NCBI RefSeq assembly: GCF_057098645.1
Contig: NZ_CM169472.1
Reading direction: 5' to 3' (one strand)
DNA length: 64,000 nt
The notes below the pieces were generated by a model that saw nothing but the letters and a program-made list of their open reading frames with translations, was not told where the DNA came from and did not search any database. The first letter of the stretch is position 1, and each line of letters starts with the position of its first letter. Positions 14,360-34,923 of this stretch are shown here, piece by piece. The position numbers and the translations under genes are program-made.

Positions 14360-14443
14360 ATATGTCCTTTTATCACTATACCAAGTCAAGTCATTGATTT
14401 AATTAAACAATTATCATTGAAAAAGTGCCAAAAATCGCAAATT

Positions 14444-14508
14444 GACTACACCATTAACTACACCGTTCGGTGCACTGTATGAAACAACGTGGAACAAATA
14501 GACACAAG
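14444..14508 (+). promoter_or_regulatory. Left-arm repeat cluster: GACTACACC, AACTACACC, then GAAACAACGTGGAACAAATAGACACAAG
   Basis: Near-identical arrangement found upstream of int at 32445-32510; candidate integrase arm-type and accessory-factor binding sites. Confidence 0.4.
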
Positions 14509-14572
14509 AAATATACAGGCGGGTAATCTTTCCAGGGGGAAGCGCACCAATTCATGAGGGGCGTTAATGTCG

Positions 14573-14615
14573 ATATGGGGATCCCCATAACGGGGCTACC
14601 GGATTTTTTTTCCGG
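14573..14615. repeat. Two perfect palindromes (TATGGGGATCCCCATA and CCGGATTTTTTTTCCGG) in the island left-end non-coding region
   Basis: Read directly from the sequence. Confidence 0.5.
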
Positions 14616-14874
14616 TTAACATTTAATCAGGCTGGTGGGTTTTACATACCCTTGATCACCGTAATGATGATCCAGATGTGCACCTTTTCCACCAATGGCG
14701 GAAAAGCTCCAACCGTAACGATGATCGCTATGGTTGCCTCGATGGTCTGCGTGGTCATTATGACCATTCAGCCAGTGACCTTAATCAGAATTTTTCGCTA
14801 AAAAATGACGTTGGCCACGTCATCCTGATAGCACAAAATCACGTCGATTTTTAATGAACGGTTAAACCGTCTTT

Positions 14875-14915
14875 TTGTCACGGTGTGTCACTGGTTGTCA
14901 CTCTCCGTCACGATT
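14875..14915. repeat. Four closely spaced GTCAC repeats (TGTCACGG, TGTCACTGG, TGTCACTCT, CGTCACGAT)
   Basis: Direct repeats about 110 bp downstream of the last packaging-operon gene; candidate TerS-binding/cos-pac or operator array. Confidence 0.35.
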
Positions 14916-15025
14916 GAGGTGGTGGTCATTCTGCCCGACCGCGCATTTTTGCGCTATCGGGAATATAAAACAGTTACCGCCGTCAGCTACCCAGCTCAGA
15001 ATTGAGCCGCCTTTTAATCAACAAG

Positions 15026-15307
15026 TTACCGCCGTAACCGCTCCGGCTTCTTCCAGTGGTACGTTATTTTCGCCTTCTCCCGATACAGTTCAACGCGGCG
15101 ATTGTAGGCCAGCATTTCCAGAACGCGGATCCGTATGTCGCGCATATCCGCATCATTAAGCTGGATACCATCACGGCGCATCACCTCAGCAACAACACGC
15201 GCATAATTTTCGGCTGTCACGCTGTCCGGCTGCGTGGTCTGTTCGTCAGCCTGCTGGCTGATTCCAGAGACGCGGCGGATTAATCGCAGTATTTCTGCTT
15301 CTGTCAT
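15026..15307 (-). CDS. Hypothetical protein (93 aa) downstream of terL
   Basis: ORF with GAGG Shine-Dalgarno 8 nt upstream, 14 nt after the terL stop. Confidence 0.55.
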   Translation of the reverse strand: MTEAEILRLIRRVSGISQQADEQTTQPDSVTAENYARVVAEVMRRDGIQLNDADMRDIRIRVLEMLAYNRRVELYREKAKITYHWKKPERLRR

Positions 15308-15320
15308 GCTGCTGACCTCA

Positions 15321-16982
15321 TTACACCCCGCTAAATTCTTCCAGTTTCTGGCGGTGGCTGTCGCTTATATCAAAAGCAAAATCCTCATGCTCTGCCTGGA
15401 ATGTACCAAACGCCATCAGCGCCGCCACGCTCGGGTCTATCTTGTTCGGTGATTTTTTCTTGTTCGGCTTGATATTGGCGTTCGCGTCACTCTGCATCAC
15501 GACGTTACTCATCGACCAGGACAACACCGGATCGCTACGATGCACAATCACCCTGCGGTTAACAAAAACTTCGAACGATTTCGCCGCCGGACTGAATCTG
15601 AGGTAGGTTTGCGGGAACGGCTCCACCTCAAAGCCTGCCCCCTGTAATTGCGTCCTGAGATGCGTGGCGTTCCACGTATCAAAGCCCACCAGCCTGATAT
15701 TAAATTTCTCCGCATCCTGCATGATGTCATCTCTGATCCGGTCGTAATCAATGCAGTCACCTGGCGTTGTGCGTATCCAGCCCGCTTTAGCCCACTGGCG
15801 ATAGACAGCGCGGTTTTTATTGGCGGGGTTCTGTAGCTGGAACTCCGGCAGATAATGACGGGAAACCAGCATGATATTTTTACCGACCGGAAAGGCATAG
15901 CACACGCTGGAAATATCGCTGGTTGATGATAAGTCCAGCCCCGCGTAACACTCCTGCCCGTGTAAATCTTCCTCCGTGAACGTTCCGGCACACTCAGCCC
16001 ATGCGCCGTTACCCATCCACGGGGTAGCCCCCTGGCACCAGATATTAAATCGCTTTGTCATCATCTCCACCCATTGCGACGGAATACCCCGCGCTTTCTG
16101 GATGGTTGAGGCCAGTTTTTCACGATCCACGGAAACATCGATGTTAGGGTTAGCCTTTATCCACATCGCCGGATCATCAACCTCGTTTTCGTCGTCCAGT
16201 TCGTAAATCAGTACAAAAATTGAATCGTTGACCTCTTCGCCGTCCAGGATCTGGCAGCAATAATCATAGTGCTGCTTACAGGCTGAAACGACGTTACTGC
16301 CCGATGTGGTAATGGCAAATAACAGCCCTTCGGGACGTGCGCCCATCCCCAGCTCAAGCGCGGAATAAACGCCGTTATCGGGGTGTAGGTGGTATTCGTC
16401 CACGATGGAAAGGCTTGGGTTTGTGCCCTCGATGGTTGCCGCTTTTGCTGCCAGCGGCTTTAACAGGCTGTTGCTTTTCGGGTGCATCACCTTGTGGGCC
16501 TGAATATTCACCCGCCTGCGTAACGGTCGGGATAAAAGGCACATCTGACGCGCATCATCAAAAACGATCCGCGCCTGGTCACGGCTCACCGCTGCGGTGT
16601 AAATATCCTGCTGCCCGTTCTCCATAATCAGAAACCAGTTAGCCAGAATCGCGGCGGTCGTGGATTTCGCATTTTTGCGCGGCACTTCGATAAAGGCGCT
16701 CGTGTATTTGCGCCGTCCGGTGGCCTTAACCTTAAAGCCGAGGATGCACGCAAAGGCGAACTGCTGCCACGGCTCCAGCTCAATGGGTCTGCCACGCATC
16801 GGTCCTTTTACGTGCGGGCACACCCTGGAAAAGGCAATAAACCGCTCCACAACCTCACGATCGAACGTGTAAAGGGGGCTTTTAAGGTCCGAAAAGTACC
16901 GTTTAACAGCCTGTTTTAACCGTTTACAGGCCGGAATTTTGCCCGTTTTTACGTCTTCTGCGTACTTATTCCAGGCGGTCAA
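15321..16982 (-). CDS. terL: Terminase large subunit (553 aa)
   Basis: Size and position after TerS; ATPase and nuclease regions typical of phage TerL. Confidence 0.85.
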   Translation of the reverse strand: MTAWNKYAEDVKTGKIPACKRLKQAVKRYFSDLKSPLYTFDREVVERFIAFSRVCPHVKGPMRGRPIELEPWQQFAFACILGFKVKATGRRKYTSAFIEVPRKNAKSTTAAILANWFLIMENGQQDIYTAAVSRDQARIVFDDARQMCLLSRPLRRRVNIQAHKVMHPKSNSLLKPLAAKAATIEGTNPSLSIVDEYHLHPDNGVYSALELGMGARPEGLLFAITTSGSNVVSACKQHYDYCCQILDGEEVNDSIFVLIYELDDENEVDDPAMWIKANPNIDVSVDREKLASTIQKARGIPSQWVEMMTKRFNIWCQGATPWMGNGAWAECAGTFTEEDLHGQECYAGLDLSSTSDISSVCYAFPVGKNIMLVSRHYLPEFQLQNPANKNRAVYRQWAKAGWIRTTPGDCIDYDRIRDDIMQDAEKFNIRLVGFDTWNATHLRTQLQGAGFEVEPFPQTYLRFSPAAKSFEVFVNRRVIVHRSDPVLSWSMSNVVMQSDANANIKPNKKKSPNKIDPSVAALMAFGTFQAEHEDFAFDISDSHRQKLEEFSGV

Positions 16983-17322
16983 GCTCGTCCTCTTCTTCTG
17001 TTTCCGGTGGATTTTTACGGCGGCTTATCGGGTCAAAACCGAGCAAGGAGGCCATTTTTATCATCACTCTTTCAGCGTCGGATTTTGCGCTTAATGCGGG
17101 GTTTCTGCTCTCGCCGCCCTGACTGTTAACAATGCTGAACCCGCGCGCCGCAAGGTCTGCAACGGCTTTCCGGTAAATGGAGTAGTTGACGCAATACAGT
17201 TCCAGATTGCTCCAGTCGGCGGGGGTCAGGTCTCCCCGTTCCGCAAGCTGCCGCGATTTTTCCCGCCACTGCTTCACGGCGATATCATCCAGGTAGGCGG
17301 GGGCTTTCGGTGGTCTTGCCAT
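16966..17322 (-). CDS. terS: Terminase small subunit, P27-family-like (118 aa)
   Basis: Small acidic-C-terminus protein overlapping terL start, downstream of an HNH gene. Confidence 0.75.
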   Translation of the reverse strand: MARPPKAPAYLDDIAVKQWREKSRQLAERGDLTPADWSNLELYCVNYSIYRKAVADLAARGFSIVNSQGGESRNPALSAKSDAERVMIKMASLLGFDPISRRKNPPETEEEDELDRLE

Positions 17323-17444
17323 GCTTATTTTTCGTCAGATTATTTTTCAAAAAATTCCCGTGCATAAAAATTTGAGGAGGCGTTCGGTGCCCGGCGGGGT
17401 CGGGTTTGTCCTGAAAACGCCCCCCACCCCGTCATACAGCCTCA

Positions 17445-17669
17445 TCAGCGATTGCGGAAACATTCCATAACCTCGCGGTCACGGTCGGTTAATCGCTTCG
17501 CTGTGATGCGTTCTGCGCGTCCTGACGCTTTATCTTTATGCCCTGTTTCCTGTGTCTTCCATGCGTCACGCTGCCTTATAAGTCCACGGATAAGGCGGTT
17601 TTGTTCCCGCTCATTCATCAGCGTCATACATCCAGTTATTGCGGTTAGCGGCCCGTTCTTCCTCTTCAT
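17445..17669 (-). CDS. Hypothetical basic protein (74 aa) overlapping the 3-prime end of the HNH gene
   Basis: ATG at 17669 preceded by AGGTGG Shine-Dalgarno (5-nt spacer); out of frame with HNH; start uncertain. Confidence 0.4.
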   Translation of the reverse strand: MKRKNGPLTAITGCMTLMNEREQNRLIRGLIRQRDAWKTQETGHKDKASGRAERITAKRLTDRDREVMECFRNR

Positions 17670-18051
17670 GAAATCCACCTGCGGCACGCTTGCTTTTTGT
17701 TGCCGGATCAAGCCATTTCGTTTTCTGGTTATGACACGCCTGGCACAATGGTTGATGGTTCCATTCGGGCCAGAAGAGAACATCATCACCGCCATTAATC
17801 GGGATAATGTGATCCACCACCACGGCGGGCGTATATATCCCCTTCTCAAGGCATCGCACGCATAACGGGTTTTTACTCAGATACATGGCGCGGTATTTGT
17901 CCCACTGTCTGGAGTACCCACGCGCGCGGCGGTGTCCTCGTCTGGCATCCTCTGCACGCCATGCCGCCCGCCTGTGCTCCTCACACTTGCCGGACTTCAC
18001 GCGCCTGTTACAGCCTGGTTCTGTGCATCGTCTTAATGGTTGCCACGGCAT
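17611..18051 (-). CDS. HNH endonuclease (146 aa), packaging-associated
   Basis: Cys/His-rich motifs (CxxC ... HIIPINGGDD ... CQACHNQK); located just upstream of terS as in HNH-dependent cos packaging. Confidence 0.85.
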   Translation of the reverse strand: MPWQPLRRCTEPGCNRRVKSGKCEEHRRAAWRAEDARRGHRRARGYSRQWDKYRAMYLSKNPLCVRCLEKGIYTPAVVVDHIIPINGGDDVLFWPEWNHQPLCQACHNQKTKWLDPATKSKRAAGGFHEEEERAANRNNWMYDADE

Positions 18052-18347
18052 CAGTACACCCCCACATCACGGTAAGCCGTCCAGAGCGCGCCAATCGTCA
18101 TGGGTACGCGCGTTTTTGCGTTATCCGCTACCAGCTGGCGATTCTCGTACAGGTGAGCGATAAACATCATGCAGCCAATCTTTATGGCTGGCGTGAACTC
18201 CAGCCCGTCATCAAAGCGCCTGCCTATATGTATCTGGCACGCCTCAAGCGATGCGGCAATGTATCCGCTGATTAACTGGTCTTCCTCGTCGCCATCGATG
18301 CGGCAATGGAGTTTCACTTCTTCCAGGGTGATAAGTTCTTCTGTCAT
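18051..18347 (-). CDS. Head-tail connector protein, gp6-like (98 aa)
   Basis: Size, position and sequence character of phage gp6-like connector proteins. Confidence 0.65.
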   Translation of the reverse strand: MTEELITLEEVKLHCRIDGDEEDQLISGYIAASLEACQIHIGRRFDDGLEFTPAIKIGCMMFIAHLYENRQLVADNAKTRVPMTIGALWTAYRDVGVY

Positions 18348-18682
18348 TTTTCCGCGCCCTCACGACAAAGAATTTCAAGGCGTGTCCTGGCGGCATCCGG
18401 CAGCGGCTGCCCGATGATATTCAGTACACGCCCCGCCAGCGGCCCCGTACTGACCTTTATCCGGCTGGTGGCGTTGATGTCCTTCCGGTACCGTATCCAG
18501 ATCCTTACGGTACCAATCGCCAGCTCTGCACCCGATGAAATGGCCTCCTTGCTGCTGATCATGTTCACGCTTGCCCAGAGTGTGTGACCGTCCTCCCACG
18601 TTTCGAGTATTTCGCCGGTTATATCCCTGGTCTGTTTCAGGGTCTGAATCGTTACCCTGTCACGCAGTCGCCCTATGTTCAT
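18344..18682 (-). CDS. Head-tail adaptor / head closure protein (112 aa from MNIGRL)
   Basis: MNIGRLRDRVTIQ... typical of head-tail adaptor family; starts 4 nt inside the portal 3-prime end. Confidence 0.65.
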   Translation of the reverse strand: MNIGRLRDRVTIQTLKQTRDITGEILETWEDGHTLWASVNMISSKEAISSGAELAIGTVRIWIRYRKDINATSRIKVSTGPLAGRVLNIIGQPLPDAARTRLEILCREGAEK

Positions 18683-19890
18683 TCCGGTTTTTCTCCCTCG
18701 CTGATTTTTACTTCCTGTTTCCATGCCTGGCTGAACTCATCACCACCATCACGCGGGGACAGCCCTTCACGTTCGCGGGCTTCGTTCGGGCACATAACGC
18801 CGGATTTGATGCCGCGTTCATAGGTGGCAAAGCGTTCGCCAGGTGTGGCCCGTAACAGGTCCGCGCTGTCAAACTCCACCTGATACCGGATACCAGGTAC
18901 AGGCGAGGCCACCAGCAGGGCGTTTTTTATCTGCTGCTCAAAGTTCGCCAGCCACGGGCGCATCGTCATGGTGAGAAATGCGCGGCTTGCCTCGCTGAAA
19001 TTGCTGTAGGTGCTGTTGCTGTATTCCTGCAAAAAAATCGGCGAGACGTTGAACATTCGGGCGATGTCTTCAATGGTGAAGCGACGGGAGGCCAGCCATT
19101 CAGCATCCTGATTACTCATGCCCAGCTGCTGATAGCTCATACCCCCTTCAAGGATGGGCGTTTTTCCGGCGTTTCTGGCCCCTTTGTAGCGTTCCAGTGC
19201 GGCTAATGCCTGTTTGCCCTTCACGCCGTCCAGCCATTCGCCTGACGTGATAACCCCTGCCGCCATCATGCCATCACGCATCACGCTCGCGCCGTGGCGT
19301 TGTTGGGCCAGCCCAAGCCCCAGCGATTCGCGGCAGATGGTTACAGGTGAGCGCCCCATAAAACCGTCATCCGTGGAGTAACGAAGGTGGAGAACCTCCC
19401 ACGGTAAATAGTTGCGGGTGTTTCCGGTGTAGGCGTCAGTGATGCAGTAGCGCCAGTTGTGTTCGCCTGTCTGCTCCACGTTCACCGACTGCGGCGGGTA
19501 AGGATGTAAAGCCACCGGAAAACCATCACGCCCCCACTGAATCACCGCATAAGCATTACCGTTTAACAGGCAGTGGCGGATCATCATTCGCTTAAACTGG
19601 TAGGGAGTCTGCCACGCGTTCGGGCGCTCGTTGAGGATGTGATCGACCGGATGAGAATCAAGCCACTCTCGGGCCTCCTTCCCCTTCTCATTGCGTACCA
19701 GGTACAGGTAACACGGCATGGTAGCCACCGCCTCAGAGATGACCGTGACGGCGTTCATGACGGCGGGCAGTGATTCCGCTGTCCCCGATGATACGTACTC
19801 ACCCGCCCCCGTGTTCGATGTGCCAGCCAGCGCCATAAACTCATCAAGCGTCATGCTGCGCTGCTCTTTTTTTCTTCTGAAAGGCCACAT
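18679..19890 (-). CDS. Portal protein, HK97 family (403 aa)
   Basis: Size and position between prohead protease and connector genes. Confidence 0.8.
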   Translation of the reverse strand: MWPFRRKKEQRSMTLDEFMALAGTSNTGAGEYVSSGTAESLPAVMNAVTVISEAVATMPCYLYLVRNEKGKEAREWLDSHPVDHILNERPNAWQTPYQFKRMMIRHCLLNGNAYAVIQWGRDGFPVALHPYPPQSVNVEQTGEHNWRYCITDAYTGNTRNYLPWEVLHLRYSTDDGFMGRSPVTICRESLGLGLAQQRHGASVMRDGMMAAGVITSGEWLDGVKGKQALAALERYKGARNAGKTPILEGGMSYQQLGMSNQDAEWLASRRFTIEDIARMFNVSPIFLQEYSNSTYSNFSEASRAFLTMTMRPWLANFEQQIKNALLVASPVPGIRYQVEFDSADLLRATPGERFATYERGIKSGVMCPNEAREREGLSPRDGGDEFSQAWKQEVKISEGEKPE

Positions 19891-19891
19891 A

Positions 19892-20464
19892 TCACACCCC
19901 CGCTAAATCCGCCCACCAGCGGCGATTATCCGCACGCGGCATTTTTTCGGGGTGCTGCTCATACAGGGAACGGCGGGCCAGCTCCACGCCGGAATCGGGG
20001 TAAGCCGGTACCGATGTAACGGTAATTTCGTACAGTTCCGCCACCAGCACGGTGCGCACGCATGGATCTGTTGTGGTATCCCATACATCCTTACGGGAGC
20101 GAAAGCCAAAGCTCATCCCCGAGATGTCCCCACGCTTAACCAGTTCGATAACGTCGCGCCCTGTACTGGTATCCGGTGGGGTCAGTTCAAAGCGTAACCC
20201 TGTTTCGTCCTCTTCCAGTTTCAGCGTGCCGGAACGGGTGCGCCCCAGTAACATGCTGTGGTCATGCTCATACAGGCCGCGAACGTCATTACCCGCCGCA
20301 AGCCATTCAGTAAACGCTCCCCGCTGGAATTTTTCGTAAAACTCACCCCATAGCAGATCAGAAAGGTTATCCCAGCGAACAACGTAGCCTGTAAGCGTGT
20401 TGCTGGCGCTGGTGGTGATTTCCGATGACCGGATTTCCATACTCTTCATAATTTTTTCACCCAT
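19892..20464 (-). CDS. Prohead maturation protease, HK97 family (190 aa)
   Basis: Size and position between major capsid and portal genes. Confidence 0.8.
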   Translation of the reverse strand: MGEKIMKSMEIRSSEITTSASNTLTGYVVRWDNLSDLLWGEFYEKFQRGAFTEWLAAGNDVRGLYEHDHSMLLGRTRSGTLKLEEDETGLRFELTPPDTSTGRDVIELVKRGDISGMSFGFRSRKDVWDTTTDPCVRTVLVAELYEITVTSVPAYPDSGVELARRSLYEQHPEKMPRADNRRWWADLAGV

Positions 20465-20503
20465 AAAACACTAAAGGGGCTTTTAAGCCCCTTCTGTATG
20501 CTG

Positions 20504-21661
20504 TTAATCGTCGTCTTCCGGCAGTTCCAGAATCTTGATCGCGTTCGAATCCACCACGCCACCGCCTAAATATTTTTGCGTGAAAATTTTGATGAATCCT
20601 GGTTCTGTCAGGTTGTCCGGTCTGGTGCGAACACCTGTTTCGTGATCAACAATGTAGTAACCGCGTTTGAAGTCACCCAGGGCAATAACGTTATCAGGCA
20701 TAAACTCCAGATATTCGACCGGAAGGCCCAGCAACGTATCAGGATCACCCGCCTGTAAACGGTCGCGCCAGATATAATCACCGTTCGCGTTCTTCACCTT
20801 CTGAAGTTTTGCCGCCGTCGTGGAGTTAACCACCCAGACCGCGTTTTTGCGGTATTTTTTACGTAATGCAAATTTCAGGTCGATCAGCGGGTCCGCAGAT
20901 GTCCACGCCAGAGATTCGGAAGGTTTAATTACCTGCAACGTACCAAAATCACGCTCTTTGTCGTTCTTCTCTGCACGGGGTACGGATAAAAAACCTTTTG
21001 CTTTTTTGTCACCGTCGCCCACAACCAGATCGCTTTCTTCGGTTTCCGTGAAGGTGTCGCCAATCTCACCCGTCAGCCATGAAAGGATGTCCACATCGGA
21101 AAAATCCACGATTTCCTGTGTGGTGCGCGGGTACGCATAGACCGGATACAGCTTGATGCTCACCTCGTTAATCTGCGGGGTGCTGGTCTGTTCGCGTGCC
21201 TTACCCTCTTCACCGTGGTTAACGGTCGCACCGCCAGCGGAAACAAGCTGCTTAAACTCGTTGCTGCTGATTTTCTTCACGGTACAGATGCGGCGCATGG
21301 TGGATTCATCCGCCAGCATTCGCATGATTTCGGTGTTCAGTTCAGGGATAACGGTATAACCACCATCAGCGGGAACGCCTGTACTTAATGCGCGGGTTTC
21401 ACCTGTCAGAATGTAGTTGCGGAGTTCTGCGGGGTCAGTGGTCTGACTGCTTTTACCTGGCTTGCTGCGCTCTTCGTCTGCAATGGCTTCAAGGCGGGAA
21501 ATGTCTTTATCGAGGGATTCAGCTTTAGCGCGTAATTCGTCAAATTTTGCGCCCTCTGCATCGTTAAGGCTGCGGTTTTCTTTTTCCGCGTTCTCCAGCA
21601 TGTCGCGCATCTGATTTTTAATGGCGGTTTTCTGCTGGCGTAATTCGATTATTCTCGGCAT
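20504..21661 (-). CDS. Major capsid protein, HK97 fold, with N-terminal coiled-coil scaffolding (delta) domain
   Basis: Start taken at MPRIIELRQQ (ATG 21661) because the upstream codons of the 21706 ORF form a terminator hairpin; coiled-coil N-terminus then MCP-like body. Confidence 0.85.
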   Translation of the reverse strand: MPRIIELRQQKTAIKNQMRDMLENAEKENRSLNDAEGAKFDELRAKAESLDKDISRLEAIADEERSKPGKSSQTTDPAELRNYILTGETRALSTGVPADGGYTVIPELNTEIMRMLADESTMRRICTVKKISSNEFKQLVSAGGATVNHGEEGKAREQTSTPQINEVSIKLYPVYAYPRTTQEIVDFSDVDILSWLTGEIGDTFTETEESDLVVGDGDKKAKGFLSVPRAEKNDKERDFGTLQVIKPSESLAWTSADPLIDLKFALRKKYRKNAVWVVNSTTAAKLQKVKNANGDYIWRDRLQAGDPDTLLGLPVEYLEFMPDNVIALGDFKRGYYIVDHETGVRTRPDNLTEPGFIKIFTQKYLGGGVVDSNAIKILELPEDDD

Positions 21662-21699
21662 AAAAAAAAGTCCTGGGGTTAAGTAAGGAACTCCAGGAC
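21662..21699 (-). terminator. Intrinsic terminator immediately upstream of the capsid start codon
   Basis: Minus-strand RNA: GUCCUGG(AGUU)...(AACC)CCAGGAC stem followed by U8 and then AUG. Confidence 0.55.
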
Positions 21700-21751
21700 G
21701 CGGCAAACACTCAACCGTTTTTCATAAGGAAATCAGTAATCGCACCGATCG

Positions 21752-21801
21752 TTTTCCCGCCTGGTAATGAATATTGGCGAGCACATTAACAGGCGGGAAA
21801 A
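21752..21801 (-). promoter_or_regulatory. Long perfect hairpin in the capsid-operon leader (12-bp stem TTTTCCCGCCTG/CAGGCGGGAAAA, 26-nt loop)
   Basis: Inverted repeat read directly from the sequence. Confidence 0.45.
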
Positions 21802-21876
21802 TGGCCCCAGCGTCCTGGCACCACGGGCGAGAATAATCATGATTCAGTTCGGGTAAAATATGCCGATCCACTCAGT

Positions 21877-21906
21877 GAACAACGTGGAACAACCACGAAC
21901 AAATAA
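21877..21906 (+). promoter_or_regulatory. Third copy of the AACAACGTGGAACAA-N4-GAACAA motif, in the capsid-operon leader
   Basis: Same motif as at both island ends (14481-14508, 32483-32510). Confidence 0.35.
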
Positions 21907-21920
21907 TTTACAAAACATGA

Positions 21921-21943
21921 CAAAAAGCCGGATTGCTCCGGCT
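21921..21943 (-). terminator. Intrinsic terminator after the PerC-like gene
   Basis: Minus-strand AGCCGGA-GCAA-TCCGGCU hairpin followed by UUUUU. Confidence 0.5.
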
Positions 21944-21949
21944 GTGTGA

Positions 21950-22222
21950 TTATCTGTCCTGGTAATTTCGCCATATTTCATCACCAGCACCATCCATACC
22001 CATTTCGGCATAAGTGCGATCGACCGCCTTTTTCAGGTCTCCGTAATTATCCGGCGGCTCCGGTGGCCTCTGTGCCTTCCTGGAACATTCCAGCCGTCGC
22101 ATCGTGATATGATGCCGTTCCTTGTCTGTCTCCACCAGCTGCATGACTTCACCCCATCGCGCCGCCGCCCTCCGGTAAAAGCCTTTCGCCTCCAGTTCCT
22201 CCGCTATGCGGTCATGTACCAT
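21950..22222 (-). CDS. Small regulator, possibly PerC-family (90 aa from MVHDRIAEEL)
   Basis: ATG 22222 with GGGGGTGA Shine-Dalgarno, 11 nt after the ssb stop; FYRRAAARW motif reminiscent of PerC-like activators; family assignment is tentative. Confidence 0.4.
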   Translation of the reverse strand: MVHDRIAEELEAKGFYRRAAARWGEVMQLVETDKERHHITMRRLECSRKAQRPPEPPDNYGDLKKAVDRTYAEMGMDGAGDEIWRNYQDR

Positions 22223-22232
22223 CGTCACCCCC

Positions 22233-22891: not shown

Positions 22892-22903
22892 TTCTCGCAA
22901 CCT

Positions 22904-23093
22904 CTCACTTTTTCGCCTCACTTTTTCAAGCGTCTCACTTCGTCGCAGTTGGGATTTTCGGTTTTTCTATGTGTGTGTTTCATAAGTATTTTTTTACCCC
23001 TCACTTTTGAGGATGTATACAGGTCGAAAAGTGAGGGAGAGCGGGCTAATTTTGGCCCTCTTTCTATCCCCCTCGCTTTTGCTCCTCACTTTT
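22904..23093. repeat. Iteron array, candidate island replication origin
   Basis: Six direct copies of (C)CTCACTTTT and one inverted copy (AAAAGTGAGG) immediately 3-prime of the rep gene, the last overlapping the rep stop codon. Confidence 0.6.
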
Positions 23094-25370: not shown

Positions 25371-25386
25371 ACTGTTGTTCCTTCTG

Positions 25387-26952
25387 TCAGTGGTAGTAGC
25401 CCGGACCACGCAGGTTTTCATGCTCTGAAGCATATGCCGGATGTTGTTCGCCCTGGCGGGATAATGGAAGCTCCAGGTTCTCCCGATGGTGACGCAGCAG
25501 ATTGTCGATAAAGCGTCTGTCAGGGGCGTTATAGTGCAGGGCAACGTAACAGGCCTTTTCCAGCCGTTCCGGGCCGTATTTTTTCTGAAGTGCCAGCAGC
25601 CCCAGAACTGCACGATAAGCCAGTTCCGGATGGGGTTTTGCCTTCAGCATGGATTCAACCACCCGGCCTGTGGACGGGCCCGTACGTTTTCCCTGCTCGA
25701 TCAGGCGTTCCGGTGTCCATGTCCCGTGCTGCCGGTGGCGCTCTGGCATGTGAAGCGGATTGGTTGTGTGTTTATATTCATGTGTGCTGCGCGGATGTTG
25801 CGCCACACACTGCCCCTTGTGCCAGAGCTGTACCACCGACTGCCCCGCCTTCAGTGACAGACGCTGACCGACCAGTTCGTGTGGAACGGAGTACCAGTGA
25901 CGGGCATATTCAACGTGGTAGTCAGGGCCAACCTTCACAGCTTTGTATTCCGTGTATTCATAAGGTGCCAGAGGCAGCGGAGAGAGTGCTGGCGCATCCA
26001 GTATGCGGAAGCGTTCTGCACGGGTTTGATTGCCGTACCCCTTCATTGGCCGGTTATTCATGTCTGTCAGTAACTCCCTAAGGCGCGCATTCAGCGCCCT
26101 GAGCGTGTGGAAGGTTTCATTACGGATGCGGGCAAGAAGCCATCGTTCAACGATGAGGACGCCGTTTTCTGCTTTTGGTTTATCTTTAGGTTTGCGTGGT
26201 CGGGCCGGGATGATAACCGTGCCATAGTGCTCAGCCAGTGCCTGATAACTGTCGTTGATGACAGGCTCATATCGATCGGCCTTTTTCACTGCGCTTCTGA
26301 GGTTATCGGGGATGAGCAGCTTCGGTACGCCGCCCAGGAAGGTCAGGCAACGGCTGTGGGCATTTAACCATGACATCATGTCCTGACCTTCGCACGCTTC
26401 AACGTAGGTATAGTTGGACGCCCCCATTACGGCCACGAAGATTGCCACGCGGCGTATCTCACCGGTGTCCGGATTAATAACAGGAACCGTAGGACCACAG
26501 AAGTCGATAAAAAGCTTTTCGCCGGCACGATGCTCCTGGCGCATGGAGAGACGTCGCGTTTTTTTCCACTCCCGGTAGCAACGGCAGAAGTGCGAGTATC
26601 CCATCGCTTTGTTACCCGCCTGTGCCTTGTATTCCATCCACAACAGTTGCCGCGTCACACCTGGTTTTCTCATTTCCGTATCGAAGTACAACATGTCAGG
26701 CATTACAAGCTCTGATGCAAAGGTGTCTTTGGGCGGAAAAATGAGTTTCTCCAGCGTGTCATGGGATATATCAGCAGGTAATGGCCATGACAGAGAAGAG
26801 GCTTTGAAGCGGGCAAGAACCTCAAAAACGGTTGAGGCGCTGATGTGTAACGTCAGTCCGATACAACGGTTAGTCAGCTTCTTGTCGAACTTGAGCTGAA
26901 GGATCTTAAAACAGGTTTCCATAGTGCTCCTGGATTTTCTCTTTCTGGACAT
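25387..26952 (-). CDS. istA: IS21-family transposase IstA
   Basis: N-terminal HTH then DDE integrase core; start ambiguous (26922, 26952 or 27033). Confidence 0.8.
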   Translation of the reverse strand: MSRKRKSRSTMETCFKILQLKFDKKLTNRCIGLTLHISASTVFEVLARFKASSLSWPLPADISHDTLEKLIFPPKDTFASELVMPDMLYFDTEMRKPGVTRQLLWMEYKAQAGNKAMGYSHFCRCYREWKKTRRLSMRQEHRAGEKLFIDFCGPTVPVINPDTGEIRRVAIFVAVMGASNYTYVEACEGQDMMSWLNAHSRCLTFLGGVPKLLIPDNLRSAVKKADRYEPVINDSYQALAEHYGTVIIPARPRKPKDKPKAENGVLIVERWLLARIRNETFHTLRALNARLRELLTDMNNRPMKGYGNQTRAERFRILDAPALSPLPLAPYEYTEYKAVKVGPDYHVEYARHWYSVPHELVGQRLSLKAGQSVVQLWHKGQCVAQHPRSTHEYKHTTNPLHMPERHRQHGTWTPERLIEQGKRTGPSTGRVVESMLKAKPHPELAYRAVLGLLALQKKYGPERLEKACYVALHYNAPDRRFIDNLLRHHRENLELPLSRQGEQHPAYASEHENLRGPGYYH

Positions 26953-27137
26953 TGACGTCTCCACTGGTTTAAACACGGCAATGGAGACTGTGGTGAAAAG
27001 AGTTAATTCCCGGAGTGACTGGCAGGATGCCAATCAATGATCGGAAGCATGCCAAATCGTGATCGATTGTGATGCCAAACTGTGATCGGAGATGGATGCC
27101 AAATCATGATCGATTCGAATGCCAAACTGCGATCGAT

Positions 27138-27434
27138 TCAGATGCCATTTTGCACGTTAACCATGGTTTTCAGCTTCTGGATGTTTGCCCGTGCCCTGGC
27201 GTTGCTGGTGGGCACGTTATGCGGCGCGGTCTGTACCAGAGAAAAATCACGCCGGAACTGATAAACAGGCATCACGCAATCATATTCGTAACCTTCACGG
27301 CGGTAAGTTACGCACCGTCCCGCCACGCCCTTAATCATTACCGTGCCGCCGTACTGGTCGCGGTAAATATCACCGCGCGTAAATTTAGGGTGAGTGTTGC
27401 CACTGGCAGTTAAGCCAGAATATTTAAGTTTCAT
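27138..27434 (-). CDS. Hypothetical protein (98 aa); last 6 codons replaced by IS21 end sequence
   Basis: Before the IS21 insertion this gene would end ...KLKTMVNGFRGKK with its TGA overlapping the rep ATG (24490-24492). Confidence 0.5.
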   Translation of the reverse strand: MKLKYSGLTASGNTHPKFTRGDIYRDQYGGTVMIKGVAGRCVTYRREGYEYDCVMPVYQFRRDFSLVQTAPHNVPTSNARARANIQKLKTMVNVQNGI

Positions 27435-27439
27435 TATTT

Positions 27440-27673
27440 TTATTCTCCGGTGTGCTGTTCTTTATATCTGTCGTGCAATAGATCTATTTTTTGCAGTTCC
27501 ATTATTACAGGCTCAAGTAGCGTTATTAATGCCGTGGCAATTCTTGATTTTTGTTTGTCGCGTTCATTATCTCCAAGCGTGTCAAGCCATATGCGCAATA
27601 TTTCCAGCATGTTTTCACTGTGAGAAAGTGCAAGAAATGCGCGGTCTATTGTTTCAAGGTAAATATCACGCAT
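27440..27673 (-). CDS. Hypothetical protein (77 aa)
   Basis: Coupled ORF (5-bp gap to next gene, 1-nt gap after previous stop). Confidence 0.5.
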   Translation of the reverse strand: MRDIYLETIDRAFLALSHSENMLEILRIWLDTLGDNERDKQKSRIATALITLLEPVIMELQKIDLLHDRYKEQHTGE

Positions 27674-27674
27674 A

Positions 27675-27896
27675 TTAATCCCCGTCCGTCGTTTTTCTTA
27701 AAACAACTTCTGTCACGAAATCAGCATAGTTAGCGGCAATATCAAGAATATTTAGCCCTGTATCCCTGTGCTCATCAGTGCAAAGAAAGAAAAAAGCCAC
27801 CAGCATAATTTCAGATATTGACGAAAGCGCATCAGCCGCATCATCAGGAACGCCGGAAAATTCCTGTTTCAGGGAATTAAAACGATCATCACGCAT
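27675..27896 (-). CDS. Hypothetical protein (73 aa)
   Basis: First ORF of the three-gene set upstream of rep. Confidence 0.45.
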   Translation of the reverse strand: MRDDRFNSLKQEFSGVPDDAADALSSISEIMLVAFFFLCTDEHRDTGLNILDIAANYADFVTEVVLRKTTDGD

Positions 27897-27929
27897 AACC
27901 CCGTTACTTTATTCGTACCCCTTATAATG

Positions 27930-28129
27930 GGGTGTTAGCCAGCCAGACCCGGCATGATTACTGCCCCCAGTCGTCCATGATCCGGGGGGTGATGTCACCG
28001 GGTCTGGTGGGGCGCTGGTAACCGCTAATAGGGGTCAGGTCAGGCACTTTTGCCGGGACCGTCTGTAACGTGGATGCCGGTACCTGCTCCCCGTGGTTAT
28101 CTGGTTAACCCATATACAAGGGAGACAGA
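27930..28129 (+). ncRNA. Candidate IS110-type bridge (guide) RNA in the 5-prime non-coding end
   Basis: Structured GC-rich non-coding flank upstream of the recombinase, where IS110-group elements encode their bridge RNA; not verified by folding. Confidence 0.25.
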
Positions 28130-29326
28130 ATGACCGAATCCAGCGATTACGAATCCGTCCAGGTCTTTATCGGCGTTGATGTCGGTAAAGATACGCATCA
28201 CGCTGTAGCCATTAATCGTTCAGGTAAACGCCTGTTCGATAAAGCATTACCCAACGACGAAAACAAACTCAGGTCGCTAATATCTGACCTGAAACAACAT
28301 GGTCAGATACTGCTGGTTGTTGATCAGCCAGCTACCATCGGTGCGTTACCTGTCGCCGTTGCCCGCTCAGAAGGAGTCCTTGTCGGATACCTCCCTGGAC
28401 TGGCCATGCGCCGCATAGCCGACTTACACGCCGGTGAAGCTAAAACTGATGCTCGTGACGCTGCCATCATTGCCGAAGCTGCCCGTACCCTGCCTCACGC
28501 GCTACGCACGCTGAAACTGGCTGACGAGCAAATCGCCGAACTCTCCATGCTCTGCGGCTTCGATGATGATCTTGCCGCACAGACAACGCAGGCCAGCAAC
28601 CGTATCCGCGGCCTTCTGACCCAGATACATCCGGCACTGGAGCGCGTTCTCGGTCCGAGACTTGATCACCCGGCGGTACTCGATCTTCTCCAGCGATATC
28701 CCTCACCAGAAAAACTCGCTTCGCTGGGTGAGAAGAAGCTGGCAGCCCAGCTCTGCAAACTTGCGCCTCGTCTGGGTAAACGCCTTGCAGCAGACATAGC
28801 TCAGGCACTGGCCGAACAAACCGTCGTCGTTCCCGGCACGAATGCCGCTGCCGTAGTACTGCCACGTCTGGCACTCCAGCTCATCACGCTGCGTAAGCAA
28901 AGAGACGAGGTGGTGCTTGAGGTAGAACAGCGAGTTCTTGCTCACCCTCTTTACCCGGTCCTGACCAGTATGCCCGGAGTCGGTGTCAGGACCGCAGCCA
29001 GACTCCTCACCGAGGTCGCCTGCCGCGCCTTCGCCTCTGCCGCACATCTCGCTGCTTATGCTGGCCTTGCGCCGGTAACTCGGCGATCCGGCTCGTCAAT
29101 ACGCGGTGAGCATCCCTCGCGACGGGGTAATAAAGCTCTCAAACGGGCGTTGTTCCTGTCGGCCTTCGCCGCGCTCAGGGATCCGCTCTCCAGGGCTTAC
29201 TACACCCGCAAAATGAGTCAGGGAAAACGACACAATCAGGCGCTTATCGCCCTGGCGAGACGACGCTGCGACGTTCTGTTCGCCATGATGCGCGACGGGA
29301 CTTTTTATACCCCGCAGGCGTCATAA
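28130..29326 (+). CDS. IS110-family transposase/recombinase (398 aa)
   Basis: N-terminal IGVDVGKDTHHAVAIN (RuvC-like DEDD) motif and C-terminal serine-containing domain. Confidence 0.85.
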   Translation: MTESSDYESVQVFIGVDVGKDTHHAVAINRSGKRLFDKALPNDENKLRSLISDLKQHGQILLVVDQPATIGALPVAVARSEGVLVGYLPGLAMRRIADLHAGEAKTDARDAAIIAEAARTLPHALRTLKLADEQIAELSMLCGFDDDLAAQTTQASNRIRGLLTQIHPALERVLGPRLDHPAVLDLLQRYPSPEKLASLGEKKLAAQLCKLAPRLGKRLAADIAQALAEQTVVVPGTNAAAVVLPRLALQLITLRKQRDEVVLEVEQRVLAHPLYPVLTSMPGVGVRTAARLLTEVACRAFASAAHLAAYAGLAPVTRRSGSSIRGEHPSRRGNKALKRALFLSAFAALRDPLSRAYYTRKMSQGKRHNQALIALARRRCDVLFAMMRDGTFYTPQAS

Positions 29327-29339
29327 CATGCTTGACAAC

Positions 29340-29561
29340 TTAATAGGGGCACCCCCCATTTTCACAATCAGCAATAAGAATATTTTTAGCGTCATTCAGC
29401 GACCGCGTGGCGGTGTATCGGATACATTCCAGGGCGAACTGTGTCCGGTCTTTCTGTTCTTCTCCCTGCGCAAGCTCTGCAGTGCATTCAATATCGATAA
29501 GCGCGTGCATCAGCGTAGTGAGCGCGGCGGCTGCTGCGTCCGGTGTGGTTTTATTGCACAT
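29340..29561 (-). CDS. Hypothetical Cys-containing protein (73 aa, MCNKTTPDAAAAALTTLMHALIDIECTAEL...)
   Basis: AGGAGG Shine-Dalgarno 8 nt upstream; ATG overlaps the end of the preceding gene by 11 bp; stop is 14 nt from the IS110 transposase stop. Confidence 0.5.
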   Translation of the reverse strand: MCNKTTPDAAAAALTTLMHALIDIECTAELAQGEEQKDRTQFALECIRYTATRSLNDAKNILIADCENGGCPY

Positions 29562-29751
29562 GGCACACCTCCTGACGAATACGGGCGGCGAATACAGCAA
29601 CACAACCGGACGGGCAACGGCTACGCGCTTCGCGTTCCGTCCAGGCGGTTACGTGGATGATTTGAGATTCTCCGGCACTCAGTGCCAGAAAACGCCACAC
29701 AAAGGCCGTTTGTGTGTGTACAAGGTGTGGTATATGATTTACAGCAACCAT
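29551..29751 (-). CDS. Hypothetical Cys/His-rich protein (66 aa, MVAVNHIPHLVHTQTAFVWRF...CPSGC...CHVQ)
   Basis: AGGAG Shine-Dalgarno 5 nt upstream of ATG; first gene of the leftward small-gene operon. Confidence 0.55.
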   Translation of the reverse strand: MVAVNHIPHLVHTQTAFVWRFLALSAGESQIIHVTAWTEREARSRCPSGCVAVFAARIRQEVCHVQ

Positions 29752-29780
29752 AACGGCTCCTAGTTTACGTTGTTGGTTAG

Positions 29781-29825
29781 AAGCCCTGCGAGTGGTAACG
29801 ACACTTGCGGGGCTTTGTCTTTTCA
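29781..29825 (+). terminator. Strong hairpin with U-rich tail, best formed on plus-strand RNA
   Basis: 14-bp stem AAGCCCUGCGAGUG/CACUUGCGGGGCUU with two G-U pairs on the plus strand (C-A mismatches on the minus strand), followed by UGUCUUUUC. Confidence 0.45.
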
Positions 29826-29845
29826 TCGATTACCTTGATAAAGGT

Positions 29846-29924
29846 GTCAGCCACTATATTAGTAACGGGTGTCAGCCACGTCAATAGTGTTTTTCCGTTT
29901 TCTTGTGTGTATACTGTCAGCCAC
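29846..29924 (+). promoter_or_regulatory. Three direct repeats TGTCAGCCAC (29846, 29870, 29915) overlapping the promoter of the RHH gene
   Basis: Exact 10-bp repeats; the third overlaps a TATACT -10-like hexamer about 30 bp upstream of the RHH start. Confidence 0.5.
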
Positions 29925-29945
29925 CTAATAACGAGGAAATCAGAT

Positions 29946-30125
29946 ATGGCAACAAAAGCAGTTAATGCAAAATCCAAAAAGCTTGAGGCTCGAGTACCAC
30001 ACGCAATAGCTGATGCTGTAGAAAATTTAAAGGAAGATGGCGAAAGTACAGGGCAATTTATCGTTTCGGCACTTGAAGGCGAGATCAAACGCCGCCAGCG
30101 CCGCAAGGCCAAAGAATCAGAATAA
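29946..30125 (+). CDS. Ribbon-helix-helix (CopG/Arc-like) DNA-binding protein (59 aa)
   Basis: MATKAVNAKSKKLEARVPHAIADAVENLKEDGESTGQFIVSALEGEIKRRQ: beta-strand then two helices pattern; plus strand, divergent from the small-gene operon. Confidence 0.6.
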   Translation: MATKAVNAKSKKLEARVPHAIADAVENLKEDGESTGQFIVSALEGEIKRRQRRKAKESE

Positions 30126-30167
30126 TCACTATCAGCGCCGTGGTGTGAGGTATTACGGCGCATTGCT

Positions 30168-30356
30168 ATGCAGGACAACACAATGACCGATAAAGAATTG
30201 ACCAAAACATTATCACCGGCACGGAAAAGACGGCGCAGAAAGATAGAGCATGAATCAGAAAGATTCGCGCCATGTGCTTTTGCCCTTGAGCAATTCCTTA
30301 AAGAATACAGGGAAAAGCGCTCATTGCAGGTATGGCAACGAACTGAACCAGACTGA
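30168..30356 (+). CDS. Hypothetical highly basic protein (57-62 aa, contains RKRRRRK)
   Basis: ORF directly downstream of the RHH gene and upstream of an intrinsic terminator; weak ribosome-binding site. Confidence 0.4.
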   Translation: MQDNTMTDKELTKTLSPARKRRRRKIEHESERFAPCAFALEQFLKEYREKRSLQVWQRTEPD

Positions 30357-30451
30357 TTGCATTGCCCACCAGCCTGATAGCGGCTATCATCCCCGTGCTT
30401 ATGTTTGGGATCACACACACAAACGGCGCAGCGGGTTATCTGTTCAGAAAG

Positions 30452-30479
30452 GCGGCTCCATTTCGGGGCCGCTTTTTTT
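30452..30479 (+). terminator. Intrinsic terminator of the plus-strand RHH cassette
   Basis: GCGGCUCC-AUUUC-GGGGCCGC hairpin followed by UUUUUUU. Confidence 0.6.
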
Positions 30480-30625
30480 ATGCCTGAAAAACCCCAATTT
30501 TGTGGTTTTCCAGTCTCACCAGGGCGAACGAATCCCCGCCCACGTTCTGGCGTATATTCAATCTTCATGGTTATAGCTCTGTGTTCAGATGATTGATGTG
30601 TGGCGGCTGTGTGCCGCCAGCGTGA

Positions 30626-30814
30626 TTAATGAACTGCCTTGCAGCTATCCTTCCAGGCCAGAACCTCGGATAAAGACCAGCCAACGGAACGACCGCCAAG
30701 TTTACGACGTGATGGGAATTGTCCGGCCTTTTCCAGGCGGTAGCGACACGTACGGCTAAGGCCGGTTAGTTTTTCGCATTCTTTTTCACGTATAAACCGA
30801 TCAGTGCTTAACAC
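30626..30814 (-). CDS. alpA: AlpA-family phage regulatory protein (62 aa)
   Basis: LTGLSRTCRYRLEKAGQFPSRRKLGGRSVGWSLSEVLAW matches the AlpA/Xis-like HTH family pattern. Confidence 0.8.
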   Translation of the reverse strand: MLSTDRFIREKECEKLTGLSRTCRYRLEKAGQFPSRRKLGGRSVGWSLSEVLAWKDSCKAVH

Positions 30815-31188
30815 TATTGCCCCCTTTCGTTTCTTAAAGAGTTATTTCGTGTTCTATTGCGTTGAGATGTGTCTGATTGTGTCAGGATGATTCAGAGTTG
30901 GCAAATGTTGAGGCCGTATGGTTTACAGAAAGAGGAATAATCAGGATAAAATCATTTAAATTCATGTTAATACAAAGACATAAAATATTGTTTCATGCCT
31001 TTTTTCTCGCTATTTAAAGAGTGATTCGCTAGTGTATAAAAAACCAGTGACACATTAAAAATCAGCTACTTATAAATCTGTACACTTTTTCGCCTCTTGT
31101 TCGTAGTTGTTCCGCATTGTTGCTCATTGTTGCACGTTGTATCTGTTCGCATATCCAGTATGCGCATACTGAAAAAATACGAAAAAAA

Positions 31189-32406
31189 TTATTTTCTTCT
31201 GGCTACTGGTAGCGTGGTTACGTTTTCATGTGTTCCCGCCAGTATCCCTAACCGCTCCATCCACATATCCAGCGCATTGCGTTTAGCATCCAGATAACGG
31301 GAATGATTATAAACTCGCTGCATTCCTGGCATCTGGTGGCCTGTAAGCTGCTCCACGACATGCGGATCAACGCCTAAATCGTTCAGCATGGTTGTAAAGG
31401 TGCGCCGGATGTCATGCAGTGACCAGTGAGGATGATTAAGCCTCCTGTGCGCTAATCTTCCATACTGCGATACGCTGGCCTCCTGTTTCACTTCCCCCAG
31501 CAATAAGCCCGTGTGCCTGTTCTGCTCCACCAGCTGCGTGACGAACGGCAGGATCGCTTCCGGTATGGGCCGGAATATTGCGACCTTCGTTTTGCTGTGC
31601 TCCTTCGGAACGGTCCATAGCATTTCCGTAAAATCCCACTCCCCGATCTCCGATAGCCTCAGTTCTACCGTCCTGGCTCCGAAGACAATCAGGAGGCGGA
31701 TTAACGCGACGTAGTAAGGGGAAAATATTTTTTTGTCCAGTGCCTGCAATAATTCGCCAAGTTCTTTGTTACTTAAGACACGTTCGCTTATATCCGGTTT
31801 TTTCCCAACGTCCGCCACGTTCAGATCGTCCAGAACGTTGCTGATTGCATAGCGCCGCCTACGGCAGAACTTAAGCGCCTGTTTGCACGCCTGTAGCACG
31901 AATCCGGCAGTAACAGGCGTTCGCTTTGCCACCTGGTCAAAACAGGCCAGCCAGTGCCGTAGCTCGCATTTATCCAGCGGCATAGCACCAATCTGCTGTA
32001 TTACGTGATTATTAAGTCGCCTTTTCAGGGCGATATAATCCACGCGCTTTTCCTTTACGTAATACTCAAGCCAGTAGGTGAGCGCATCGCCAACCGTTAC
32101 GGGCTTTAACGCTTCCTGTACGGTGTAATTCATCTCATGACGTGGATTTTTCCCCTCAGCCAGCCATGTGCGACACTGTGCGGCTTTTTCCCTAGCTGCT
32201 TTCAGGCTCAGATCAGGATAACTTCCCAGCTTAATGCGTTCGGGTCGTGTCTCCCTTCCCGTTCCGGCCCTGTATGTGAAATACCAGGTCAATTTCCCTG
32301 ATGTTAAATATTTCACGCTCAGGTTTCCGCCATCACTATAAAACGTGTTTTTCTCCGCTGGCTTACCATGAAGTTTCCTTAGCAAGGTATCGCTCAGTTT
32401 GTTCAT
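31189..32406 (-). CDS. int: Tyrosine integrase, P4-like (about 405 aa)
   Basis: Arm-binding N-terminal domain plus catalytic R..HxxR..Y signature (HDIRRTF...RYLD); start at ATG 32406 (GTG 32418 also possible). Confidence 0.9.
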   Translation of the reverse strand: MNKLSDTLLRKLHGKPAEKNTFYSDGGNLSVKYLTSGKLTWYFTYRAGTGRETRPERIKLGSYPDLSLKAAREKAAQCRTWLAEGKNPRHEMNYTVQEALKPVTVGDALTYWLEYYVKEKRVDYIALKRRLNNHVIQQIGAMPLDKCELRHWLACFDQVAKRTPVTAGFVLQACKQALKFCRRRRYAISNVLDDLNVADVGKKPDISERVLSNKELGELLQALDKKIFSPYYVALIRLLIVFGARTVELRLSEIGEWDFTEMLWTVPKEHSKTKVAIFRPIPEAILPFVTQLVEQNRHTGLLLGEVKQEASVSQYGRLAHRRLNHPHWSLHDIRRTFTTMLNDLGVDPHVVEQLTGHQMPGMQRVYNHSRYLDAKRNALDMWMERLGILAGTHENVTTLPVARRK

Positions 32407-32444
32407 TGCTCTGCTCACGTTTTACCCCCTCTTTACGAAAAAGT

Positions 32445-32510
32445 GACTACACCAGTGACTACACCGATCGTTGCACAAAGGGCTACAACGTGAAACAAGC
32501 TGGAACAAGG
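32445..32510 (+). promoter_or_regulatory. Right-arm repeat cluster: GACTACACC x2 then ACAACGTGAAACAAGCTGGAACAAGG
   Basis: Between the int start and the chromosomal junction; mirrors the left-arm cluster. Confidence 0.4.
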
Positions 32511-32593
32511 AAAATCACAAATCTGTTGATAATCAAAAACATAATGCACAGCCTGAAACATTATGAAACAGCAAAAAACACTAAATGATAAAA

Positions 32594-33500
32594 TGCTGTT
32601 ATTCTTAACCCGCTGGTGCAACACATGGTCCGCTGGCGAGTGCCGCGTGTACTGGCGGTGTCGATTTTGATGACCATCATCGTGATGGCTATGGTGTTGC
32701 TGTTAGCTTATCTGGGTTCCGCGCTCAACGAGTTGACGCGGACGTTACCGCAATATCGCAACTCTATTATGACGCCGCTGCAAGCTCTTGAGCCGTTGTT
32801 GCAACGCGTAGGGATTGACGTCTCAGTTGACCAGCTGGCGCATTACATTGATCCGAACGCGGCGATGACGTTGCTCACCAACTTATTGACGCAGTTATCT
32901 AATGCCATGTCATCAATATTTTTATTGCTGCTGACGGTGCTGTTTATGCTGCTCGAAGTGCCACAATTGCCCGGAAAATTTCAGCAAATGATGGCGCGTC
33001 CGGTTGAAGGGATGGCGGCGATTCAGCGTGCGATTGACAGTGTGTCTCATTATCTGGTGCTGAAAACAGCCATCAGCATCATCACCGGCCTGGTCGCATG
33101 GGCGATGCTCGCCGCCCTCGATGTTCGCTTCGCTTTTGTCTGGGGATTGCTGGCCTTTGCGCTTAATTACATCCCTAATATTGGTTCAGTTCTCGCGGCA
33201 ATCCCCCCTATCGCTCAGGTACTGGTGTTTAATGGCTTCTACGAAGCGTTGCTGGTGCTGGCGGGATATCTGCTGATTAATCTGGTCTTCGGCAATATTC
33301 TGGAGCCGCGCATCATGGGACGTGGGCTGGGGCTTTCGACATTGGTGGTATTTTTGTCGTTGATTTTTTGGGGATGGTTGTTAGGACCGGTGGGTATGCT
33401 GCTTTCCGTGCCGTTGACAATTATTGTCAAAATTGCGCTTGAACAAACAGCGGGAGGTCAAAGCATCGCCGTTCTGTTAAGCGATCTCAATAAAGAGTGA
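32594..33500 (+). pseudogene. tqsA: tqsA (ydgG) AI-2 exporter, 5-prime truncated at the island junction (lacks about 45 codons)
   Basis: K-12-like TqsA sequence begins abruptly at ...[16 protein letters not shown]; an in-frame TAA sits at 32589-32591 just inside the island. Confidence 0.8.
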
Positions 33501-33524: not shown

Positions 33525-34916
<1,392 letters not shown>

Positions 34917-34923
34917 TTACCCC

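Follow-up and report, generated by a model that had tools for sequence, protein, structure and literature searches.

A hybrid capsid-forming satellite island joins phoQ to a truncated tqsA in Escherichia coli, probably through a terminus-spanning inversion

In the 64 kb of the Escherichia coli contig NZ_CM169472.1 analyzed here (the window), a single island lies between phoQ and a 5'-truncated tqsA. In E. coli K-12 MG1655, the two break points are separated by 485.7 kb. How did one island come to bridge two distant loci? To answer this question, we analyzed the junctions of the island, the parentage of its two parts and its gene content. The island most probably represents one of the two products of homologous recombination between two inverted satellites, an event that inverted about 0.49 Mb of the chromosome; we put the probability of this reading at roughly 0.77. 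The window shows one of the two junctions that such an event is expected to leave.

Junctions of the island and native islands at the two sites

The left flank of the island matches the 1.19-Mb region of K-12 in reversed orientation. Its last gene is phoQ (12899..14359, plus strand), an intact open reading frame (ORF) identified from the ORF list and from the annotation of matching loci, with its stop codon at 14357-14359. The stop codon is overlapped by the 10-bp attachment (att) core of the phoQ site, AAATATGTCC (14358..14367), which we refer to as the site-A core. Island DNA begins at 14368, where the window departs from the phoQ-roxA intergenic sequence of K-12. At the other end, K-12-like tqsA resumes abruptly at 32594, which corresponds to nucleotide 129 and codon 43 of the gene. 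The first 9 bp, TGCTGTTAT (32594..32602, tqsA nucleotides 129-137), are the att core of the second site, site B. The truncated tqsA, running from codon 43 to the stop codon (32594..33500, plus strand), opens the right flank, which matches the 1.67-Mb region of K-12 in forward orientation and continues colinearly through pntB, pntA, ydgH, ydgI, folM, ydgC, rstA, rstB, tus and fumC.

In K-12 MG1655, phoQ is located at 1,188,316-1,189,776 on the minus strand and tqsA at 1,673,913-1,674,947 on the plus strand. In the window, the two flanks have opposite orientations with respect to K-12, the phoQ side being the reversed one, and two distant K-12 loci are joined. A first-pass annotation of the window had placed the 3' end of phoQ to the left of the island, had followed the right side into pntBA and rstAB, and had estimated the distance between the flanks in K-12 at about 480 kb, all of which agreed with our results. 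The abrupt start of tqsA at 32594 was likewise confirmed, with the codon, given there as about 45, corrected to 43.

An intact integrated element is flanked by a direct repeat of the same core. The window, in which the att cores differ, has only the left copy of AAATATGTCC and only the right copy of TGCTGTTAT. Since the left core belongs to site A and the right core to site B, the island has no flanking direct repeat.

Native islands related to that of the window were found at both sites. At site A, the island is inserted between phoQ and roxA and is bracketed by a direct repeat of AAATATGTCC (for example, contig L002). At site B, the island lies inside tqsA, with a 144-nt 5' fragment of the gene left next to mdtJ, and is bracketed by a direct repeat of TGCTGTTAT (for example, contig L001); tqsA is a known integration target which is disrupted upon integration (PMC3603311, PMC7192596). 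Among 5,426 complete E. coli genomes, the phoQ-island junction was present in 574 and the integrase-'tqsA junction in 246. On the plus strand of K-12, the integrase comes first and the terminase last in island A, with the reverse order in island B, and the native islands are therefore mutually inverted. Several O103 and O111 genomes carry both junction types, and the complete genome of E. coli JNE141411 (NZ_AP027256.1; L048 and L049) holds both islands about 490 kb apart in the pre-inversion configuration, where they form an inverted repeat of 9,831 bp with 99.67% identity. In the annotation of JNE141411, roxA and the site-A integrase gene at site A and terL at site B are marked as frameshifted.

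Parental haplotypes and the place of exchange

Draft assemblies of the same lineage were retrieved via exact-protein look-ups, and the window was aligned with native A and native B islands. The three-way alignment contained 282 single-nucleotide polymorphisms (SNPs) that tell the two parents apart. At the first 185 of these diagnostic sites (14408-16614), the window has the A allele; of the 97 remaining sites, from 16803 onward, 96 are of the B type and one is not. The A-type run ends with site 16614, and the B-type run starts with site 16803. Because the alleles switch from A to B only across the 188 bp between them (16615..16802), a stretch inside terL which is identical in both parents, the exchange was placed in that interval.

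The A-derived segment (14368..16614, minus strand), A-type at all 185 informative sites, comprises the A-specific end, an ORF of 93 amino acids (aa) and the 3' part of terL. The B-derived segment (16803..32593, minus strand) comprises the 5' end of terL, terS, the HNH endonuclease gene, the genes for the connectors, portal, protease, capsid, PerC and SSB, repA, the regulatory genes, alpA and int. In the parents, the common cores amount to 10.5 kb at 97.65% identity, with a longest identical stretch of 1,976 bp.

Individual contigs of the lineage gave the same picture. The site-A contigs L016, L017 and L024 had no mismatch to the window over 5026-16802, which covers 9.3 kb of chromosome and the first 2.4 kb of the island. 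From 16803 on, L016 and L017, which span the island, differed from the window at 98-269 sites, and L024 (GCA_012249965.1) had 37 differences before its contig broke at 18903, next to the A/B SNP at 18904. The site-B contigs L010 and L007 had no mismatch over 27155-27902 and 29352-38588 and two SNPs only (19496 and 22410) over 16615-24514; over 15023-16614, they had 63 mismatches. Two further contigs, L026 and L027, were without mismatch over 29352-42418, with a single mismatch of L026 in 27155-27902, and L030 matched the window only up to 30858, where it continues into IS1. The proteins at the two ends of the island also went with their sites: the 93-aa protein of the A end adjoins phoQ in every place shown among 24 public contigs, and the exact protein of the tyrosine integrase, of the tqsA-site type (31189..32418, minus strand), is found only next to 'tqsA-pntB (11 public contigs).

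The exchange left terL as an intact ORF of 553 aa (15321..16982, minus strand). Its predicted product is a chimera in which K34 is of B origin and M166, A319, N369 and S483 are of A origin, and the exact protein was not in the public gene index. The predicted reciprocal TerL, with E34, I166, T319, T369 and G483, was also considered as a marker; it turned out to be a common natural allele at both sites and hence unusable.

Three site-A islands of the same lineage (L005, L006 and L022) have A-type ends and an interior (window equivalents 15633-27902) identical to the tqsA-site island of the lineage. These mosaics may be the footprint of an earlier exchange between the two sites, although contig continuity suggests that these genomes have one island only.

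A probable inversion and competing explanations

Three features of an inversion between repeats were found at this locus: homologous elements occupy both loci in opposite orientation, the breakpoint lies inside shared homology, and the flanks are distant from each other with one of them reversed. We infer that the ancestor of the strain carried both satellites, about 98% identical and facing opposite ways, one between phoQ and roxA and the other inside tqsA. A single RecA-type crossover in the 188-bp identical stretch of terL would then invert the DNA between the islands, about 486 kb on the K-12 scale. In a schematic form with the slash marking the crossover, R-[intA..terA]-P ... M-[terB..intB]-N would become R-[intA../..terB]-M' ... 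P'-[terA../..intB]-N, and the second of the new junctions would be that of the window. In this way the phoQ side, with the terminase end of island A still attached, would come to adjoin the remainder of island B with its truncated tqsA, and the reciprocal product would be roxA-intA...terL/B-end-tqsA'(nt 1-137)-mdtJ. That the whole interval was inverted is suggested by the anatomy of the junction, and no simpler path accounts for an internal switch between two native junctions. Native relatives match the A-derived part exactly and differ from the B-derived part at two positions, which makes the event very recent for this lineage.

The interval includes the position of dif. In K-12, the distance from dif (1,590,750-1,590,777) to the phoQ end of the interval is 402 kb and that to the tqsA end 83 kb. 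The inversion would move dif about 0.32 Mb and, with oriC and all distances as in K-12, leave replichores in a ratio of about 43:57. In the window itself, neither dif nor a tRNA gene was found. A TerB-like site, GGATGTTGTAACTAAAG, with one mismatch to the pattern used, was observed at 42784-42800 (plus strand) just upstream of tus; tus and this site are about 10 kb to the right of the junction, outside the inferred inversion. The GC skew, about 0 in the left flank and about -0.04 in the right flank, was uninformative across the junction.

The arrangement is rare. Two queries were run against 5,426 complete E. coli genomes: the raw region, and a composite free of insertion sequences (IS) that consisted of 3 kb of phoQ flank, two conserved pieces of the island and 3 kb of tqsA flank. 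Both flanks in one place counted as a match, and the join was absent from all of the genomes. It was also absent from the public contigs found via RepA, the A-parent RepA, the B-type integrase and the 93-aa end protein, every one of which was native. A full-text search returned no relevant literature on an inversion involving phoQ and tqsA together. The lineage of the window is missing from the complete-genome set, in which the best identity to the right flank was 98.9%, and more than 10 draft or Logan assemblies have flanks with no SNP (5026-14367 and 32594-42418). The lineage is sampled only as drafts, among them GCA_012249965.1, GCA_025225035.1 and GCA_053263075.1, and is polymorphic for island A, island B or possibly both.

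Several points weigh against an inversion. The join is a singleton, seen in 0 of the 5,426 complete genomes and in no public contig looked up. The reciprocal junction falls outside the 64-kb window, and the join is seen in assembled sequence. Co-residence of the two islands in the lineage is only hinted at, by the break of L024 at the A/B SNP 18904, and other drafts of the same lineage seem to carry one island only, A or B. Finally, the crossover lies in an identical stretch of 188 bp and not in the longest one (1,976 bp).

It could be proposed that both islands are in fact native and that the assembler switched copies within their shared sequence, so that the inversion is only apparent. This could happen if the 188-bp identical node was mis-bridged or if the segment between the inverted repeats was mis-oriented. 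Mis-joins are classically caused by repeats of this kind, here 10.5 kb (97.65% identity) that include identical stretches as long as 2 kb, and an artefact would fit an arrangement that is unique relative to the 5,426 complete genomes and all public contigs examined. However, there is one clean switch only, on either side of which the parental haplotype is perfect, and a node of 188 bp is trivially spanned by long reads. The repeat is, moreover, broken up in the window copy by two private IS insertions. The comparison with independent Illumina-type contigs showed no mismatches or gaps over more than 20 kb, and the window is therefore an accurately polished assembly. The misassembly that the first-pass annotation had named as the alternative was weakened by this evidence, and we regard it as unlikely, while it is still the most serious competitor.

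Less likely again is a real join produced by something more complicated than a simple inversion, for instance a translocation or an inverted duplication with the islands at its ends and with the native junctions persisting elsewhere in the genome. Inverted duplications bounded by homologous prophages do occur in E. coli O157:H7, besides inversions (PMC8743559), and only one junction is visible in the window. On the other hand, such a rearrangement requires more steps than a single reciprocal crossover, and the window is colinear with the reference order over at least 14 kb on the left and at least 31 kb on the right. The involvement of an integrase, either in site-specific recombination between the att sites of the islands or in the integration of a pre-formed recombinant satellite into a secondary site, would be in line with the relatedness of the island ends (the integrase-end DNA at 30428-32594, including int, is 87-91% identical to that of site-A islands) and is nevertheless highly improbable: it was ruled out by an exchange point about 2.3 kb inside the island, in terL and not at the att core, and by a left junction that is base-for-base native site A and a right junction that is native site B, and the duplication of one core on both sides that integration would produce was not seen.

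An inversion by recombination between related islands, which the first-pass annotation had offered as the simplest explanation, was supported by every prediction that could be tested inside the window. Its proposal that the window copy is a hybrid was borne out by the mismatched att cores and by the single parental switch relative to native islands of the same lineage, and its proposal of related islands in inverted orientation by the native islands at both loci, opposite to each other relative to K-12 and present together in JNE141411. We also looked for close relatives with phoQ natively beside tqsA, which would speak against an inversion, and found none; the close relatives are native on both sides.

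The predicted consequence for the satellites is a loss of mobility. Because the cores differ at the two ends of the island, precise excision by the B-type integrase appears unlikely, and both hybrids would be unable to excise. The hybrid of the window is probably immobile, as judged from its mismatched att ends and from an IS21-family insertion that separates the upstream genes from repA.

A capsid-forming satellite as the probable substrate of an inversion

The island (14368..32593, minus strand) is 18,226 bp long, or about 14.1 kb without its two IS elements. The genes on its minus strand encode TerL, TerS, an HNH endonuclease, a head-tail adaptor, a head-closure protein, a portal protein, a prohead protease and an HK97-type major capsid protein, followed by PerC, SSB, a RepA-type helicase/primase (23092-24492, minus strand), small regulatory ORFs, an AlpA-type regulator and the tyrosine integrase. 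The eight capsid and packaging genes (capsid, protease, portal, connectors, HNH, TerS and TerL) had PHROG matches with E-values from 1e-34 to 1e-178. The alpA-type gene (62 aa, 30626..30814, minus strand) lies in a region 100% identical to L026, in which the product carries the Pfam domain PF05930 (Phage_AlpA). No tail or lysis genes were annotated among the larger ORFs of the island and the genes called in near-identical relatives.

The integrase, alpA and the replication module form the backbone of a phage-inducible chromosomal island (PICI), and the island has, in addition, its own capsid and packaging genes and a size, without the IS elements, close to the approximately 15 kb of capsid-forming PICIs (cf-PICIs). 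Judged by its gene set, the island is of the cf-PICI type, and its structure makes it a hybrid member. The prototype, EcCIEDL933 (bioRxiv 10.1101/2022.09.08.507074), and other cf-PICIs share with it int, alpA, the replication module, the HK97-type capsid, protease, portal, connectors, HNH, TerS and TerL, the absence of tail and lysis genes and a size of about 14-15 kb. Unlike these, the window copy combines parts of two islands and has an att end from each of two sites, and its interruption by an IS21-family element and ISEc20 means that it is probably no longer mobile. cf-PICIs are induced and transferred with the help of a phage that provides the tails, and for the window copy such mobility is doubtful. 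In O157:H7 genomes, a close relative is located at the phoQ site.

The small accessory ORFs had no PADLOC, Pfam or NCBIfam match. This also applied to an ORF of 263 aa (29777-30568, minus strand) between alpA and the Icd-like genes, the coding status of which is uncertain, since gene callers sometimes favour opposite-strand ORFs in the identical DNA of relatives.

A stretch of about 4.1 kb that is missing from relatives was first taken for cargo. It proved to consist of two IS elements, not defence genes. One is an ISSso4-like element of the IS21 family (24516..27154, minus strand; istA at 25387-27033, istB at 24615-25613), flanked by a duplicated 7-bp target, CGTTAAC. Its position at the boundary between DUF4222 and repA probably cuts repA off from the upstream operon, and the element was absent from all relatives examined. 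The end of the same-lineage contig L027 at 27183, 28 bp from this site, was considered as a sign of a shared insertion; L027 contains no IS bases and is uninformative on this point. The other element is ISEc20 of the IS110 family (27903..29351, plus strand; transposase at 28130-29326). ISEc20 was also observed at the identical insertion point, between 27902 and 27903, in an independent phoQ-site island (L034, positions 1-113; GCA_053263075.1), which suggests that ISEc20 repeatedly targets a specific sequence in a small ORF among the regulatory genes of cf-PICIs. Both insertions are later than the island. Outside the island, the window has two copies of an IS5-family element, one near its left end (373-1353) and one inside uidC (about 50.8-51.8 kb); the uidC insertion occurs at the same place in NZ_CP145698.1.

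Inversions of this kind have precedents. In E. coli O157:H7, prophage-bounded inversions are biased toward the terminus (Fitzgerald et al. 2021, PMC8743559), and prophage-bounded large rearrangements in this organism were reported by Iguchi et al. 2006, as cited in PMC8743559. As proposed for the window, the O157:H7 inversions result from homologous recombination of phage-related elements present in long inverted copies of high similarity, cover hundreds of kilobases with a bias toward the terminus and leave hybrid elements at their boundaries. While the repeats in O157:H7 are lambdoid or Stx prophages, those of the window are cf-PICI satellites of about 14 kb, with the phoQ/roxA and tqsA attachment sites as end points. 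The window inversion would also be asymmetric about dif (402 versus 83 kb on the K-12 scale), whereas replichore size in O157:H7 is reportedly largely unchanged. Inversions mediated by rrn or IS copies in Salmonella Typhi and Shigella (PMC3107234, PMC2957434) similarly rearrange large segments around the terminus through inverted-repeat recombination, with an rRNA operon or an IS element in the role that a mobile satellite has here. The event is of the same kind as the prophage-bounded inversions of O157:H7 and will not surprise a specialist.

What the window adds is a probable terminus-spanning inversion resolved to the base pair, with both parental haplotypes still identifiable in the same lineage. 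This mildly extends the rearrangement of E. coli genomes by prophages to a rearrangement by capsid-forming satellites. The substrate is common, since about 10% of the complete genomes have the phoQ-site junction, about 5% have the tqsA-site junction and some have both. Both satellites have probably lost their mobility through the event, and the replichores have probably become unbalanced, with possible effects on fitness. For annotation, an island like that of the window should not be treated as a normal integration.

It is tempting to speculate, with little confidence, that cf-PICI pairs at phoQ/roxA and tqsA serve E. coli populations as a hinge around which terminus-spanning inversions recur and can be reversed. 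If so, each flip would shuffle modules between the satellites, which could explain mosaics like L005 and L006. It would also leave both satellites locked by att ends that do not match, and dif would move by about 0.3 Mb. Structural polymorphism would then be driven generally by satellites and not by prophages only, and satellites would drive their own domestication.

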